Origin: Candidatus Latescibacterota bacterium
GTDB taxonomy: Bacteria; Latescibacterota; UBA2968; SICM01
DNA length: 64,000 bases
Assembly (NCBI GenBank): GCA_965217865.1
Contig: CBDCJO010000002.1
Location: 3,648,001 to 3,712,000, forward strand
Reading direction: 5' to 3'
Shown: in pieces, positions 20,739 to 27,790 of the stretch
Layout of the letters: the number at the start of each line of letters is the position of its first letter
Numbering within the stretch: position 1 is the stretch's first letter
Notes under the pieces: model-generated
Told to the model about the DNA's origin: nothing
Databases searched by the model: none
Seen by the model: only the letters and a program-made list of their open reading frames with translations
Position numbers and translations under genes: made by a program

Positions 20739-20993
20739 TTGATGGCAGCCCTGACATCTTTTGAAGGTTTTGCACATTTGGACGACGATGAGATCCAGAA
20801 TATCTTGAGGAAGGTCGAGACGGAGGATCTGGCAGCGGCTTTGAAACTGGCCAGCAATCAGGCGAAAAAGAGGATATTCGACAATATATCCGACCGGGTA
20901 AAGAAGATCATCCAAGACCGCATGGAAAAACTGTTGGACATATCGAAGGTGGAGATCGAGGAAGCGCAGCAACGGATAGTGAGTGTGTCTTGA
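20739..20993 (+). CDS. Stand-alone FliG C-terminal-like domain protein
   Basis: LDDDEIQNILRKV...LAAALK...IFDNISDR...EIEEAQQRIV, with a good RBS (AAGGAGG). Confidence 0.75.
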   Translation: MMAALTSFEGFAHLDDDEIQNILRKVETEDLAAALKLASNQAKKRIFDNISDRVKKIIQDRMEKLLDISKVEIEEAQQRIVSVS

Positions 20994-21086
20994 GACTTGG
21001 GTGCCGTATGATGGACTGCCCCTATAAACCATATATATCTTTTTTGCTGTTTTGGCTTTCAGTTTTTTATATTTTGGTGATTGAGT

Positions 21087-21961
21087 AGATATTGGCACCA
21101 GCGTATATTAATAATATGCTGGTAATTAATCCACTTAAGTTAGCAAATGACTGCAAGATAAGTAGGGCCTATTTTCGTGCAGCCCGTTGGGGTGGAAAAA
21201 GGCGATGTCCAAGCTGCGATTATCAGCGCAGGTTGCCCTTATTAAAAGACGATCGGTTCAGGTGTTCACGGTGTGGATATCGGTTTAAAGATTTCACGGG
21301 CACTTATCTTGAAAGGCTTCGAATTTCATTTGACGAGCTTGCCCATTTACTTTATCTGTTTGTATTGGGAGTGCCCTCTTACCGATCCAGGCACTACCTG
21401 TCCGTATCGCTGAAAACGGCTCAGCGGATTTATACCACGTTTCGCCAGGCCATCTACGATCATAGCTTTACGGACCAGGTGCTTTGGGGTGAGATCGAGT
21501 TGGACGAGGCGATGTATGGAGGTCATCATAAGGGTAAGCGTGGATGGGGAGCAGCCGGAAAACACTTGGTTTTCGGGCTTTATCAGAGGAACGGAAAAGT
21601 CCTCACCTTTCCCATTCCGGATCGAAGTCGAAACACCCTTACACCGCTTGTGACCTCACACATCAAAGCAGGCAGTCTATACTACACCGATGACTGGCAC
21701 GCCTACACTTGGCTGTCAGTCAAAGGTGACCACGTGGTTGTTCGAAAAGAAGAAGGGGTGCCCAAAGGCAAAGGCCGACATCACATCAATGGCATCGAAG
21801 GCTTCTGGAGTTTTTCTAAAAATTGGCTATATCAATACAGAGGAATCCCTCGACATCATTTCCATTTATACCTGAAGGAAACAGAGTTCAGATTCAACCA
21901 GGAAGACGAGGATCTCTTCCCAATTATTGCTTCATATCTGGTGAATCTGGTACCAATATCT
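21087..21961 (+). mobile_element. IS1595-family insertion sequence
   Basis: IRs AGATATTGGCACCAG / CTGGTACCAATATCT flank the transposase; exact tips and TSD are unclear. Confidence 0.85.
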
Positions 21962-21967
21962 TCCTAA
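21116..21967 (+). CDS. IS1595-family transposase (Zn ribbon + ISXO2-like DDE)
   Basis: CxxC...CxxC, EIELDEAMYGG, YYTDDWHAY, HINGIEGFWS, LYLKETEFRFN. Confidence 0.93.
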   Translation: MLVINPLKLANDCKISRAYFRAARWGGKRRCPSCDYQRRLPLLKDDRFRCSRCGYRFKDFTGTYLERLRISFDELAHLLYLFVLGVPSYRSRHYLSVSLKTAQRIYTTFRQAIYDHSFTDQVLWGEIELDEAMYGGHHKGKRGWGAAGKHLVFGLYQRNGKVLTFPIPDRSRNTLTPLVTSHIKAGSLYYTDDWHAYTWLSVKGDHVVVRKEEGVPKGKGRHHINGIEGFWSFSKNWLYQYRGIPRHHFHLYLKETEFRFNQEDEDLFPIIASYLVNLVPISS

Positions 21968-22057
21968 TTACCATAATTTTTAATATAAACAACCTTTGGC
22001 GCAGACACCGGGGGAGAAATCACGCCGTTGCGATTTTGAGTTTGATGGAGGCGGGCC

Positions 22058-22389: not shown

Positions 22390-22497
22390 ATGGATTGGTT
22401 ACCCATATTAGCGTTAATCGGAACCGCCTTTTTCTTGATACCCATTTTAAATGATTTTCAAAAAAAGCTGGCTGCGATCGAAAAAAAACGCAATTAG
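22390..22497 (+). pseudogene. Truncated TM-anchored protein cut by the transposon end
   Basis: MDWLPILALIGTAFFLIPILNDFQKKLAAIEKKRN*; the stop lies inside the TIR and the N-terminus resembles that of 13325. Confidence 0.5.
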
Positions 22498-22508
22498 CAG
22501 ATTAAGGC

Positions 22509-22537
22509 TTGACTTCCCAAGCCAGAGTGAGTAACTT
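22509..22537 (+). promoter_or_regulatory. Sigma70 promoter in left TIR; predicted leaderless MTase mRNA
   Basis: TTGACT-N17-TAACTT with the ATG 6 nt downstream and no SD. Confidence 0.65.
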
Positions 22538-22543
22538 CACGCC

Positions 22544-23512
22544 ATGCCCAACTTTAAGAACCGGACTATGTGGACGGGAGACAACCTGGACATCATGCGT
22601 GGGATGAACTCCGAGAGCGTCGATCTGATTTATCTGGACCCCCCGTTCAACTCCAACCGCACCTATGCCGCACCCGTGGGGAGCAAGGCGGCAGGGGCAG
22701 CCTTCAAGGATTCATGGTCGTTGTCCGACTTGGATGTTGCCTGGATGGGTATTATCGCCGACAAACACCCCGCAATGTATAAGGTTCTGGAAGCGTCTGG
22801 CATCACTCACGGAAAAGGGATGCAATCCTACCTCTGCATGATGGGTGTCCGAATCATTGAAATGCATCGCCTCTTGAAGAATACGGGTAGCCTATACCTG
22901 CATTGTGACCCTACGGCCAGCCACTACCTGAAGCTGCTTATGGACGCGGTATTCGGGCCGGGAAACTTTAAGAATGAAATTACATGGTGCTACAAAAGAA
23001 TGGCAAGCCGGAACCAACGTCATTTTTCAAGGTGTCATGACGTTCTGCTGTGTTACGAAAAAACTCCCCGCTCAACCTTCAACCCTGATTCCGTAAGGCT
23101 TCCGTATTCGGAATCCAGCAAACGCAGAGCGGGACACAAAAAAACGAGCTTGGGAGGTGCAGCCCCCGCGTCTGGCGTGTGCGAACTCAACGCCAGGGGG
23201 CGTTTCCCTGAAGATTGGTGGGACATCCCAATCATAAGACCCAATGCGAAAGAAAGAGTCGGCTACCCTACGCAGAAGCCGTTGGCATTGCTTGACCGCA
23301 TTATCCAGGCAAGCAGCAATACCAACGATATGGTCCTGGATCCATTCTGCGGATGCGCAACAGCTCTCGTGTCGGCGGACAAAATGAACCGCCAATGGGT
23401 CGGAATAGACATCTCGCATAAAGCTTCCGAGCTTGTCAACATAAGACTTCAATCAGAATTGGGAGACCTTTATCATTCCCGCCTGGTTACGGTCCGGACC
23501 GACGTTCCGTAG
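22544..23512 (+). CDS. Beta-class N6-A/N4-C DNA methyltransferase
   Basis: Catalytic DLIYLDPPF precedes SAM-binding VLDPFCGCAT; YPTQKP..LL.RII. Confidence 0.95.
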   Translation: MPNFKNRTMWTGDNLDIMRGMNSESVDLIYLDPPFNSNRTYAAPVGSKAAGAAFKDSWSLSDLDVAWMGIIADKHPAMYKVLEASGITHGKGMQSYLCMMGVRIIEMHRLLKNTGSLYLHCDPTASHYLKLLMDAVFGPGNFKNEITWCYKRMASRNQRHFSRCHDVLLCYEKTPRSTFNPDSVRLPYSESSKRRAGHKKTSLGGAAPASGVCELNARGRFPEDWWDIPIIRPNAKERVGYPTQKPLALLDRIIQASSNTNDMVLDPFCGCATALVSADKMNRQWVGIDISHKASELVNIRLQSELGDLYHSRLVTVRTDVP

Positions 23513-23521
23513 CGAACGGAC

Positions 23522-23770
23522 ATGGGCGAGATTCCCAACTATCGAACACATAAACACGTCCTGTTCGGCAAGCAGGAAGGAAAATGCGGCGGATGCCGGT
23601 CGCTGTTTCAATTCAGGAACTTCACGGTGGATCATATCGTACCCGACGTCAAAGGAGGAACCGACCATCCGGAAAACCTGCAACTGCTCTGCGGAGCCTG
23701 TAATAGCGTCAAGGGAAGCAATACCCATGAATATCTTGTGGCCAAACTGAAGGCGGATGGTATCCTGTAA
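23522..23770 (+). CDS. HNH endonuclease domain, in frame with the MTase after a single TAG
   Basis: CGGC...VDHIVP..KGG.DHPENLQLLCGACNSVKG; junction reads RTDVP*RTDMGE. Confidence 0.9.
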   Translation: MGEIPNYRTHKHVLFGKQEGKCGGCRSLFQFRNFTVDHIVPDVKGGTDHPENLQLLCGACNSVKGSNTHEYLVAKLKADGIL

Positions 23771-23788
23771 ATCGAAAGGAGAACTCAA

Positions 23789-23929
23789 ATGGCATACGAA
23801 AAAGACAACGAACAAAAACAGAATGAATCGCCACCACCGCCAGAGACAGATACAAGAGATTTAGTCAAGGACTCGGGCTCGGATGGTAGAGAATCCAAAG
23901 AACCACAAAAATCGACTCCAGACAAATAA
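23789..23929 (+). CDS. 46-aa acidic/Pro-rich peptide
   Basis: AAGGAG RBS; MAYEKDNEQKQNESPPPPETDTRDLVKDSGSDGRESKEPQKSTPDK*; shorter than any ORF in the supplied track. Confidence 0.5.
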   Translation: MAYEKDNEQKQNESPPPPETDTRDLVKDSGSDGRESKEPQKSTPDK

Positions 23930-24075
23930 GGCCAGTGACAACAACAGAGACCACCCACTTCTTTTTGATGTTACTTATATTCTCTTTGAAGTGCAGGCCA
24001 GCCCAATATGTAATATCTTTCTTGAATTTCCAATGTGAACTGCCAAGGTGATGCTCGTACAAGCTTCTGGGGCTA

Positions 24076-25603
24076 GCAGCCTGTTGAAAAAGTGCGTTTA
24101 TGCCAAGATGACTGTTGTCTTTCCTTGTGGTTTGGTCCTATGATATATCAGGTTCAAACTGAGAAGGGAGGACGAGCAAATGGCAATGGGAAAACGAGGC
24201 CGACAGAGACAGGAAAACCTGTTCATCGCATCGAACACTTTGGTGAAATCTCCGGGTCATCCGTTCTACGAGAAGCTGAATCAGGTATTGGGGGCGAACG
24301 GCTTCGACGAGTTCGTCGAGGGGCTTTGCCAGCGGTATTACGCTCCTCATATGGGTCGCAAGGGCATTCCGCCCGGGGTTTATTTTCGGATGCTTTTGAT
24401 TGGGTATTTCGAGGGACTTGATTCGGAACGTGGGATCGAATGGCGTGTATCTGACTCGCTGACGTTGCGCCGGTTTTTGGGGTATGCCCTTGACGAACAG
24501 ACCCCGGATCATTCCAGCCTGTCTCGCATCCGGCATCGGCTTCCCTTGGAAGTTCACGAAGCGGTTTTCAAGTGGATCCTGAGGGTCTTGTGCAAAGCGG
24601 GTCTGGTGAAGGGGAAGACGTTGGGCGTGGATGCTACGACACTGGAGGCCAACGCCGCGATGCGCAGCATTGTACGCCGTGACACGGGTGAAGGCTACCA
24701 GGCATTCCTTGAGAATCTGGCCAAGGCCTCGGGCATTGAAACGCCTACCCGCGAGGACTTGTCCAAGATCGATAAGAAGCGACCGAAGAAGGGATCGAAC
24801 CAGGACTGGGAGCACCCGCACGACCCGGATGCCAAGATCGCTAAGATGAAGGACGGTCGCACGCACATGGCGCACAAGGTGGAGCACGCGGTGGATCTGG
24901 ACACCAATGCCATTGTGGCAGTGGCGTTGTCGGGAGCAGATGAAGGAGATACCGAGTCGTTGCCCTGGACGCTGCTCGAGGCGCAGCTCAATCTCAAGCA
25001 GGTCGCGAAGGACGAAAAAGCTGCCAAACGTTTGCACAGACAGCGTATACGGGAGGTGGTTGCGGACAAAGGATATCATAGCAACGATGTATTGACCAGT
25101 CTGAAGCAAGGCGGCATCCGGAGTTACATTTCAGAACCGGATCGGGGACGCCGCAAGTGGAACGGCCGACGAGATGAGCAGGCCGCGGTATATGCGAATC
25201 GACGCCGGATCAAGGGAGATCGCGGCAAGGCCTTGCGCCGAAGTCGTGCAGAACGGGTGGAAAGAACCATCGCTCACACATATGATACCGGTGGCATGCG
25301 CAGGTTGCACTTGAGAGACCGCGGCAATATCCTCAAGCGTTTGCTGATCCACATCGGGGGCTGCAACCTGGCTCTGCTCATGCGCAAAGTGATGGGCGTA
25401 GGTACTCCGAAGGCCCTCCAGGACCTGGCCAAGGCCTTGCAGCGTCTACTGCTCGTCCTACAATCACGTTTGCTGCCCTCGGTCACCTTTTTAACCTCTT
25501 ATCAGCGTCTCCTGCTCAATCTCCTTACCTTGATTTATCCGACCCGCACTCCAGGCGTCTTTTCCGTTTATGTGCGTTGAAAGGTAGTTCTTCAACGGGC
25601 TGC
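24076..25603 (+). mobile_element. IS5/IS1182-like insertion sequence nested in the transposon
   Basis: IRs GCAGCCTGTTGAA / TTCAACGGGCTGC flanked by TA. Confidence 0.9.
24180..25580 (+). CDS. DDE transposase (DUF772-like N-terminus)
   Basis: GRKGIPP, TPDHSSLSRIR, GVDATTLEANA, VVADKGYHS, ERVER. Confidence 0.93.
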   Translation: MAMGKRGRQRQENLFIASNTLVKSPGHPFYEKLNQVLGANGFDEFVEGLCQRYYAPHMGRKGIPPGVYFRMLLIGYFEGLDSERGIEWRVSDSLTLRRFLGYALDEQTPDHSSLSRIRHRLPLEVHEAVFKWILRVLCKAGLVKGKTLGVDATTLEANAAMRSIVRRDTGEGYQAFLENLAKASGIETPTREDLSKIDKKRPKKGSNQDWEHPHDPDAKIAKMKDGRTHMAHKVEHAVDLDTNAIVAVALSGADEGDTESLPWTLLEAQLNLKQVAKDEKAAKRLHRQRIREVVADKGYHSNDVLTSLKQGGIRSYISEPDRGRRKWNGRRDEQAAVYANRRRIKGDRGKALRRSRAERVERTIAHTYDTGGMRRLHLRDRGNILKRLLIHIGGCNLALLMRKVMGVGTPKALQDLAKALQRLLLVLQSRLLPSVTFLTSYQRLLLNLLTLIYPTRTPGVFSVYVR

Positions 25604-25900
25604 TAAGCACCGCCAGAGACTTGAACAATCTTCCAAACAAACAACATCCTGCACTTAAGGTAAATATCCCAATAGTCGCAATAGCCCAGTACATCCCAAG
25701 AGGCAGGTTTAGAGTCTTAGCTAATATGGGAATTGCCAATGTGAGCGTTATCACTACGGATAGGAGCGCGTGAAAAAGACTGTTCATGGCATCCCACCGT
25801 TGTTGGATAATATCATAAGACTTCACGGCCAAATTATAGGCCAGGTCCACAGAGGGGTATTTCGTTTCATCGTCCATAATTTAACCTCACGAAAAAAATG

Positions 25901-26785
25901 TTAGGCAAAGCACCCCTTCATGAACGTATCAAACGTCCGCTTGTTTTTCCGGTTGTTGTATTTGTAGCAGGCTTCAGCCACGTAGAACGGCGTGTAACGC
26001 TTCGTGTAGTGATGATGTGAACCGTACCAGGCACGCTTGAGCAGAGACCACACGCCTTCAATCGTGTTGGTATGTATATCGCCGTCCGAGTATTGCTTGG
26101 CGTGGTGGATCACAGCGTGATTCATGATTTGCCTTACGGTATTATAGGCACTGAATTCGTCCGTGACAAGCACCGACTCCGAAGGGTCTATCGCCTGTTT
26201 GATGAAGGCCAGAACCCCCGTACCCGACAGATCGTCCGCCACACGGGCAACTACCTTTCCGCCACGTTCCACGGCTCCTATAACCGGAGTCTTGCGGGTT
26301 CCTCGCCCCCTTGGAGCATTGCCACCGCCACCCGAACGCTTGTTACGTTTCCGCGGCTTGCCTCCGACGTAGGTCTCGTCGGCTTCGACGATCCCACGCA
26401 ACAATACCTTCCCCTGCCTCGTTGCCATCTCGGCACGAATCCGCTGTTGCACATACCATGCAGACCGTTGCGTAAGGTTCAGGTCACGGGCAAGTTGGCA
26501 GCTTGACAGGCTTTTCTTGGCGTTCACGATCAAAGCGATTGCCATAAACCACTTCTGAAGCGGAAGATGCGTACCCTGAAACATTGTCCCCGAAAGGACG
26601 TTAAAGCTGGACTTGCATGCATGGCAGTTCCAACGCCCTACAAGACTTCCCTCTCTCTTTCGCGCGCACTCCCCAACCACCCCACACAGCGGACAAAACG
26701 GATCACTTCCGAACCGGACACGCTCAAGATGCTCAATGCATTTTTCCTGCGTCGGGAACTTTTCAATTGCCGTCAACAAGTTCAT
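25901..26785 (-). CDS. IS1595-family transposase
   Basis: CPLC...CHAC, GIVEADETYVGG, LVTDE, HTNTIEGVWSLLKR. Confidence 0.95.
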   Translation of the reverse strand: MNLLTAIEKFPTQEKCIEHLERVRFGSDPFCPLCGVVGECARKREGSLVGRWNCHACKSSFNVLSGTMFQGTHLPLQKWFMAIALIVNAKKSLSSCQLARDLNLTQRSAWYVQQRIRAEMATRQGKVLLRGIVEADETYVGGKPRKRNKRSGGGGNAPRGRGTRKTPVIGAVERGGKVVARVADDLSGTGVLAFIKQAIDPSESVLVTDEFSAYNTVRQIMNHAVIHHAKQYSDGDIHTNTIEGVWSLLKRAWYGSHHHYTKRYTPFYVAEACYKYNNRKNKRTFDTFMKGCFA

Positions 26786-26821
26786 TTTCCTTTCTCCCTT
26801 TTTTTGGTTAAATTAGTTGTT

Positions 26822-27790
26822 TTAACTACACTTAATATAACTAAAAAGGGAAGAAAAGTCAAGCCTTAATCTGCTAATTGCGTTCTCTTTTTGAAACCAT
26901 CTGAAGTTCAGGATATCCTCGTATGAAAACTGTAACAATACGGCCATGAACAATAATCCGGGAAGGTACAACAATCCATCATTCTTCATCCAGGCGGCTC
27001 CGGCGGTTAGGATACCACCCAGAACCCACTCTCTCCTTAATAAAGCGGCAACTGCAGCCACTGAGAAGACCTCTACACCGATATCACCATATCCGGCCGC
27101 AGCATGCCAGACTTGAAGGGGAAGGGCGGAAACGATAAACCCAGATCCGGCAGCAAGCCAGCGGTTTTGAGAAAATCTCCAAACCGCCAACCAAACGATC
27201 GCCGCAATCGCAACAAAAAAAATGAGCCCATCGGCACGTGCGATGGTATCATTCCATTCTCCGTGGAAGTTGGCCGTTACCGCCCGCCATATGGGTATCC
27301 CAAGCGGATAACCCTTGTTCCCTGTGAAGCCTAAAAAAACACCGGATGCAGGATCGAATGACCAGTTGGCCTGAGCGAAGATGGATCGGGCGCGCCCCGC
27401 CCAGTGCGTGAACGCATCTCCAAAATACAAAGGGGTTTGTGTTAGTTTCCAAACGCAAAATGCCAATTTTTCAAATATGGAGATCAGTACCACCCATTCG
27501 AACCATTTCAATTTTCCCGGTCTTAATTTCGGTACTGAGATGCCCTTTTTTAGCCATACCATAATCGTTGGGATCATGATCCCGATCATCATCATGATCG
27601 TCGATATTTTCATCGGTATGCCGGCAAAACCTGCGACCCCGATCCAAAGCGTCTCCACGTAAATTCCGAGGAGTAAACATGCTGTCAAACTCTCCCCCCA
27701 GGTTCGGTTACCCGGGCAAAGCCTCAATACCGTCCAGCCTGTCCATATGTTCAGCGCGACATGGAAAAATAATGCAAAAAATGTGGTCAT
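26822..27790 (-). pseudogene. Polytopic membrane protein (GT-C/ArnT-like), C-terminus truncated by the transposon
   Basis: Many TMs, D...HW, GYPLG, GYGD, KNDGL; the last ~20 codons run into the TIR. Confidence 0.6.
26834..26862 (-). promoter_or_regulatory. Sigma70 promoter in right TIR driving the transposase
   Basis: TTGACT-N17-TATATT on the minus strand. Confidence 0.65.

Follow-up and report, generated by a model that had tools for sequence, protein, structure and literature searches.

The element at positions 22489-26882 of a 64,000-nucleotide stretch of DNA from Candidatus Latescibacterota bacterium (contig CBDCJO010000002.1) raises the question of whether the genes located between its ends act together or travel as separate passengers. 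The whole stretch, referred to as the window, corresponds to G000:C2:3648001-3712000, where G000 denotes the source genome. A sequence-only reading had proposed an IS1595 insertion sequence (IS) with one compact, self-mobile defence or addiction cassette, which is built on a fused methyltransferase (MTase)-HNH protein and possibly includes a membrane effector. From the analyses presented here we conclude, with a probability of roughly 60%, that the element is an IS1595-family transporter IS (tIS) with two independent, broken passengers, i.e. a likely single-protein restriction-modification (RM) fusion and a pair of genes for a small peptide and a membrane protein with three transmembrane segments (3-TM), which likely represents a separate toxin-plus-regulator defence unit.

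The anatomy laid out in the sequence-only reading stands. The element is enclosed by terminal inverted repeats (TIRs) of 27 bp (22489-22515, forward strand, and 26856-26882, reverse strand), which are perfect reverse complements over their whole length, and spans 4394 bp, or about 2.87 kb once a nested IS is removed, in agreement with the ~2.9 kb estimated before. The ends enclose a beta-class amino-MTase of 322 amino acids (aa) with intact DPPF and DPFCGCAT motifs (22544-23512, forward strand; N6_N4_Mtase, E 8e-48), an in-frame HNH domain with two CxxC pairs and the D-H, N and N residues (23513-23770, forward strand; HNH and HNH_5, E 2e-13 and 4e-14), an open reading frame (ORF) for a hydrophilic, proline-containing peptide of 46 aa behind an AGGAG site (23789-23929, forward strand), the 3-TM gene in two pieces on the reverse strand (23865-24076, encoding the third helix, and 25603-25877, encoding the first two) and an intact IS1595-family transposase of 294 aa (25901-26785, reverse strand). 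The latter matches PF12760 and PF12762, i.e. zinc ribbon and DDE domain, and scores 185 bits against NCBIfam NF033547 (cut-off 75). Both cargo modules are inactivated in the window copy: a premature TAG (23510-23512), at a position where sister alleles have lysine codons, ends the MTase ORF and uncouples the HNH domain, and a nested IS1182-like element of 1526 bp (24077-25602, forward strand; transposase 24180-25580) interrupts the membrane gene.

Transporter ISs of the IS1595 family are known, e.g. MTnSag1/tISSag10 and tISCpe8 (PMC5704250; for the definition see PMC9330008). The present element resembles them in its DDE transposase of the IS1595 family, a TIR length of about 25 bp, an AT-rich 8-bp target duplication and passengers located inside the ends, whereas the passengers described there confer lincosamide or chloramphenicol resistance and the swappable slot found here is occupied by an MTase-HNH fusion and a peptide/3-TM pair (PMC5704250, PMC9330008). 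The proposed self-mobility is likewise confirmed by near-identical copies at two sites and by sister elements which carry cargo in multiple copies. Counting the window, G000 encodes full-length transposases with 88% or more identity to the one described here at 12 places, and exact 8-bp duplications flank seven of the nine sister elements having both ends mapped. As a carrier the element is of a familiar kind, and the decayed window copy is in itself ordinary; what gives the locus its value are the intact alleles, which can be tested, and the peptide/3-TM module.

The idea of one cassette with a membrane effector is not borne out, since each of the two modules is found in IS1595 elements without the other. 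Four IS1595 elements of genome G042, with TIRs and exact duplications, hold the convergent peptide/3-TM pair without an MTase; two of them are identical (1637 bp), and apart from the pair they contain just a transposase, which is 76.5% identical to that of the window. Conversely, the other MTase-HNH elements examined hold unrelated cargo in the slot of the pair, and one sister element in G000 carries an HSDR_N protein in place of the MTase-HNH. Of the 43 loci obtained for the 3-TM family from metagenomes, only one had an MTase homologue in its vicinity, which was not an HNH fusion, and two had an IS1595 transposase. The peptide and the 3-TM gene thus form a module which is independent of the MTase-HNH, and the element offers a swappable cargo slot.

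The fused MTase-HNH, which in the window can only be read across a stop codon, does exist as a natural protein. G000 encodes four intact sisters, representing two allele types of 418 aa (G000:C2:1809833) and 407 aa (G000:C2:4039399) with two copies each, and they belong to a large family: all 7999 of the 7999 scored candidates matched in the fusion search, and both Pfam domains were present in 119 of the 120 listed. DPPF, DPFxGCAT, both CxxC pairs and the D-H, N and N residues of the HNH domain are kept in 97-98 of 98 aligned proteins, which were the top-scoring matches. The structure model of an intact sister is confident as a single unit (predicted local distance difference test, pLDDT, 86.8; predicted template modelling score, pTM, 0.86), and the closest folds are the beta-class MTases CcrM, M.RsrI and M.BceJIV. 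Homologous genes do occur inside such TIRs: within the best 80 of 566 GTDB matches, for which flanks of up to 6 kb were fetched, an IS1595 transposase was located near the fusion at 17 loci, and at ten loci the fusion is enclosed by TIRs and an exact 8-bp duplication; an internal transposase is missing from two of these ten elements. The hosts include Chloroflexota, Poribacteria, Proteobacteria and Acidobacteriota. Since fusions are 49-57% identical where the transposases of their elements are only 30-36% identical, the fusion cargo moves between IS1595 lineages. Matches in the plasmid and phage collections were all below 60% identity, and none of the 15 listed for each was annotated as an HNH fusion.

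A comparison of the sister alleles revealed a DNA identity of 33-41% over aa 149-225 (22988-23218 in the window, forward strand) versus 72-86% over aa 1-148. Such a variable middle within a conserved rest would be expected if the target-recognition domain of an otherwise conserved enzyme had been swapped, and the region is likely to be this domain. The ratios of non-synonymous to synonymous substitution rates (dN/dS) are 0.07-0.11 for the N-terminal MTase part (6 pairs) and 0.17-0.37 for the HNH domain (10 pairs), i.e. both domains are under purifying selection. In an intact fusion, the variable region would select the DNA site, the MTase part would mark host sites and the HNH domain would cut near unmethylated sites on incoming DNA; a swap of the middle region would alter methylation and cleavage specificity together. 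A defence activity of the intact sister fusions is plausible. The window copy would have its nuclease uncoupled, and the 322-aa product, which retains all MTase motifs, probably still methylates.

Type IIC/IIG enzymes such as MmeI, BpuSI and BtgZI are comparable in that methylase and nuclease share one chain and one specificity region and change their specificity jointly, but in these the nuclease is either an N-terminal PD-D/EXK domain joined to a gamma-class MTase or a C-terminal PD-D/EXK variant behind an MTase of the alpha class, whereas here the beta-class MTase comes first and the HNH domain last (PMC4081073; for regulation of and addiction by Type IIC systems in general see PMC12707154). 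A single polypeptide with both activities is encoded by the intact sisters and the family, and not by the window copy with its TAG. Transposon-like RM units with RM genes between inverted repeats of 26-65 bp and 8-bp duplications were described by Furuta, Abe and Kobayashi (2010), including a Neisseria unit that retains a transposase-like remnant (PMC2853133). As presented there, these units are composed of Type IIP pairs, or of Type IIG and S genes, and have no intact transposase, in contrast to the intact transposase and the beta-class MTase with C-terminal HNH domain found here (PMC2853133). The beta-MTase/HNH fusion represents a large, apparently uncharacterised single-chain enzyme layout, of which natural alleles of different likely specificity are available in one genome. 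For neither cargo, MTase-HNH or peptide/3-TM pair, was a publication found by title or start of abstract, with REBASE, ISfinder and most subscription papers lying outside this search.

Several further units related to the fusion were observed. Non-autonomous units of 1.5-1.7 kb, with TIRs and 8-bp duplications, contain the MTase-HNH gene alone (L107:5857-7395, of 1539 bp, and L167:3405-5056), and a TIR-bounded unit without transposase (L066:5944-9171) combines it with an Apea-like HEPN protein. A 10-kb element of G000 with matching duplication (L020, G000:C2:4583550-4593523) nests several IS1595 pieces, a 541-aa MTase fused to a weak Mrr-like domain and an IS3-split MTase-HNH. Several IS1595 elements share a recurring basic ORF of 45-60 aa with RGRP and PDTPENI-like stretches (L040:7209-7367, L110:5853-5984, L152:3744-3920, L151:4461-4601), for which no Pfam match was obtained with the two ORFs tested. 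Methylase matches over query aa 9-402 with 34% identity are present in Streptomyces phage records (H16-H19).

The second module is defined by the membrane protein and a convergent peptide gene. Word-index searches with the membrane protein returned just 0 and 2 relatives; a full HMMER search with the first piece of the gene yielded 160 cluster representatives, mostly of 150-180 aa, and the second piece aligns with the remainder of the same profile (E 1e-18, positions 92-156). Three hydrophobic segments are present in L152, an intact relative with 64% identity over 90 aa, whose structure model is a helical bundle (pLDDT 96); for this model there was no Foldseek match at E 0.001, only generic helical bundles in VIA (best Z 12) and no PDB sequence match. 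We scanned metagenomes for this family and, from the 43 loci obtained, scored 35 after dropping seven without a complete ORF and one without room. A peptide was counted if a convergent ORF of 22-85 aa with at least 10% proline and at most 25% hydrophobic residues ended near the stop of the membrane gene, which applied to 29 of the 35 loci compared to 2 of 82 other ORFs of the same loci; when the DNA downstream was shuffled 60 times, 3.4 loci qualified on average and never more than 7. These thresholds were set after the first few peptides had been viewed, so that the viral loci are the sole out-of-sample check. The pairing was kept in 21 of 26 clusters (60% identity) and at four of five viral loci, two of which are identical. 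The typical peptide consists of a methionine, charged residues and a proline run, often followed by the sequence hydrophobic-K/R-E/D/G. The peptide of the window passes the same thresholds (13% proline, 11% hydrophobic) and, with a tail-to-tail overlap of 65 bp with the 3' end of the membrane gene, shows the common 64-65-bp overlap. The two small genes are conserved partners which automated gene calling would overlook, and the pairing appears to be new here.

Type I toxin-antitoxin systems, whose toxins are typically shorter than about 60 aa and are repressed by antisense RNA, likewise comprise a gene for a membrane protein whose 3' end overlaps with a convergently transcribed unit. The likeness extends to the convergent unit, which overlaps or abuts the 3' end of the membrane gene at the 29 loci mentioned above; the membrane protein here, in contrast, comprises about 160 aa, and a coding frame is conserved in the unit opposite to it. 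With its length and three hydrophobic segments the protein also resembles PycTM, the Pycsar effector, and with its three helices MisC, the effector of type II Metis (10.1101/2025.11.05.686725). In contrast to both systems, neither a cyclase (E 1e-5) nor a HAD phosphatase (MisB) was found among 113 neighbours from 33 loci, nor a cyclase in the window element, and the constant partner is the convergent gene for a proline-rich peptide. Integrase, transposase, restriction or toxin-antitoxin genes are neighbours at 17 of the 33 loci, a count that has no background control. A second 3-TM type with the same layout, found in L018 and L151, shows clearer PycTM matches (E 3e-5 to 3e-6). Since window-type and L018-type membrane proteins yield no significant alignment, the same layout makes use of at least two distant membrane families.

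In the weakest step of the proposed mechanism, the membrane protein would be a PycTM-like killing effector, which is kept inactive by the convergent gene for the peptide or by the antisense transcript it gives rise to. A bolder version, which we consider possible though less likely than not, would regard the pair as an undescribed two-gene defence system, i.e. a cyclase-free PycTM-like pore gated by a convergent polyproline peptide gene, and the IS1595 elements as shuttles for this module and for a new class of beta-MTase/HNH single-chain enzymes between hosts. The peptide could inhibit the effector, or translation of the polyproline stretch could keep the antisense transcript alive, in which case a phage shutting down host translation or transcription would release the pore. 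Complex prediction for an intact 3-TM relative with its own peptide, with a score of 0.00 (mark 0.32), speaks neither for nor against this. If the pair indeed gates a PycTM-like effector, this would mean control of a membrane effector without a nucleotide signal.

A number of results speak against the reading of the cargo as an RM fusion plus a toxin-plus-regulator pair. The link to PycTM is weak, the 3-TM family appearing distantly PycTM-like: the intact relative adjoins Atlas clusters with 19-38% PycTM members (score 0.94), which points to PycTM, but the recognition value is under the threshold, none of 70 family members matched Pfam PycTM at E 0.05, and only 2 of the 70 matched the PADLOC PycTM model (best E 0.001). 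With respect to the fusion, the HNH domain has a single active site and double-strand cutting would need dimerisation, and the account of Type IIC/IIG enzymes in PMC4081073 contains no beta-MTase/HNH single-chain enzyme. Moreover, 63 of the best 80 GTDB loci showed no IS1595 transposase match within the flank, i.e. the fusion is often located outside a recognisable element, and its frequent decay into broken, multi-copy alleles suggests that any benefit is short-lived. For example, 69 profile matches to the fusion were obtained in genome G168, many of them identical broken copies inside IS1595 ends, and three identical 1.8-kb sister copies in G000 retain just the last 45 aa of the HNH domain.

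The alternative that survives best, which we nevertheless consider improbable, is that the MTase-HNH performs no restriction but is a selfish or mobility aid, with the HNH domain nicking beside the site read by the MTase and thereby promoting gene conversion, exchange of recognition regions or spread of the element. This would be in line with the closest sequence matches of the HNH domain, which include group II intron maturase HNH, Cas9 and IscB, with the recognition regions exchanged among sisters and with homing HNH insertions described in phage methylases (PMC11855218). However, the target duplications of the elements share AT richness only, without a common motif discernible by eye, the element transposes without the HNH, and the domain is a fixed C-terminal part in 119 of the 120 listed homologues rather than a sporadic insertion.

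Hardly better placed, and if anything a little less probable, is the possibility that both cargoes are near-neutral hitchhikers and that the peptide ORF is a by-product of antisense or terminator-replacing sequence without a function at the protein level. Both cargoes are broken in the window copy and the fusion is often broken elsewhere, and where the two genes overlap, the sequence of the peptide tail is limited by what the opposite strand encodes for the last helix. The purifying selection on both fusion domains and the pairing across clusters argue against this, as do the peptides themselves, which open with a methionine behind ribosome-site-like sequences, use all four proline codons (121/118/64/39) and contain the hydrophobic-K/R-E/D/G motif in 18 of 30 cases, the motif count being without a control.

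A single integrated defence or addiction cassette, in which MTase-HNH, peptide and membrane protein cooperate and retain the element in the cell, e.g. with methylated nucleotides triggering the effector as in type II Metis, whose three-helix effector is tied to adenine methylation, senses m6dAMP and requires MisB (10.1101/2025.11.05.686725), could build on the same gene order (MTase-HNH, peptide, convergent 3-TM gene, transposase) in a second G000 element type with two copies (L018, L019) and on a weak 8xMP octamer match in 4 of 70 family members (best E 0.012), but is very unlikely and largely refuted by the independent distribution of the modules described above, the lack of MisB and cyclase neighbours and the multi-copy elements with broken or deleted fusion.

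Support for the reading as a tIS with two broken passengers also comes from the history of this copy. The window copy lacks a target duplication: the left flank, AAAAAAAA (22481-22488), differs from the right flank, TTCTCTTT (26883-26890). G000 carries a second left half (L002, G000:C2:3584753) and a second right half (L003, G000:C2:3359123), each terminating at a copy of the nested IS. If the left flank of the window is paired with that of L003, the other end of an original copy A, the duplication matches at 8 of 8 positions, which is weak evidence alone as the flank is a run of A, and the right flank matches that of L002, the other end of an original copy B, at 7 of 8 positions; only by this re-pairing does the window copy show the 8-bp duplication of IS1595 tISs. 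The two left halves differ at two positions, one within the nested IS and one just past its end, with the TAG in both, and the two right halves differ at one. When the second site is rejoined, a 431-aa gene is recovered that matches the adjoining 430-aa paralogue over its full length (56% identity), and rejoining the two leftover IS flanks yields a single host ORF of 1800 aa. The re-paired flanks, the restored genes and the shared TAG indicate that two full copies once existed, both already with TAG and nested IS. The window copy is therefore a recombinant of the left half of one copy and the right half of another, which accounts for the missing target duplication, and two inversions of ~222 and 86 kb between repeats probably gave the present order. 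The element thus transposed while both cargoes were already broken. An IS-free version was not listed as a joint in four runs, and no RNA run was listed as carrying the sequence; the contigs show presence only, and the junction contigs extend just 24 letters into the IS.

Addiction based on RM, i.e. post-segregational killing, needs a separate nuclease which outlasts the methylase after gene loss. Such a role of the fusion, as considered in the sequence-only reading, is unlikely, because both activities reside on one chain and broken copies keep multiplying, including copies with upstream stops, which abolish both activities, and copies from which the fusion is deleted. At this locus an element has multiplied although its cargo was dead, and this speaks against addiction as what maintains these genes.

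The TAG is best explained as a nonsense mutation. An assembly error was ruled out, since TAG, and no other letter, is present at this position in contigs from four public runs of two studies (X7; X2, X4, X6), one of which may be the source sample. Recoding as a sense codon was ruled out as well: no tRNA with a CUA anticodon was among the 50 tRNAs found, the sisters have AAA or AAG, and one low-depth contig (X8) has an A at 23510. Separate translation of the HNH domain from the ATG at 23522 is unlikely, with a methionine at that column in just 4 of 98 homologues and no clear ribosome site. G000 contains three separate lesions in the MTase-HNH linker, the TAG and two IS3-type insertions; in one sister allele, present twice, the IS3-type element sits two codons ahead of the TAG position. 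Selective breakage at the linker as a general rule was rejected, since the lesions mapped in other genomes are located at aa 58, ~65, 78, 276, 296 and 305 and in the variable region, and none in the linker (40 hand-chosen loci, five of them from G000).

A promoter-like site, TTGACT-17-TATATT (26834-26862, reverse strand; consensus match only), begins inside the right TIR and faces the transposase gene. The left TIR holds a TTGACT hexamer oriented toward the MTase gene, which is followed by 17 bp, TAACTT and, 6 bp on, the MTase ATG without a ribosome site (22509-22546); the transcript is possibly leaderless, with the TTGACT-17-TAACTT candidate scoring below the consensus threshold. The gene split by copy B encodes a polytopic membrane protein without a Pfam family (26822-27790, reverse strand, and L002:4618-5013). 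The nested element has NCBIfam NF033551 as its top match, yet under the cut-off of that model. G000 contains 87 full, near-identical copies of this IS1182-like element; their 4-bp NTAN flanks agree in 51 copies and differ in 36, some being reverse complements, a pattern of heavy recombination between copies or of a mixed duplication mechanism. A second, unrelated IS1595 element with a 291-aa transposase and about ten near-full copies is located at 21071-21977 and adjoins a short FliG_C-like ORF (20739-20993).

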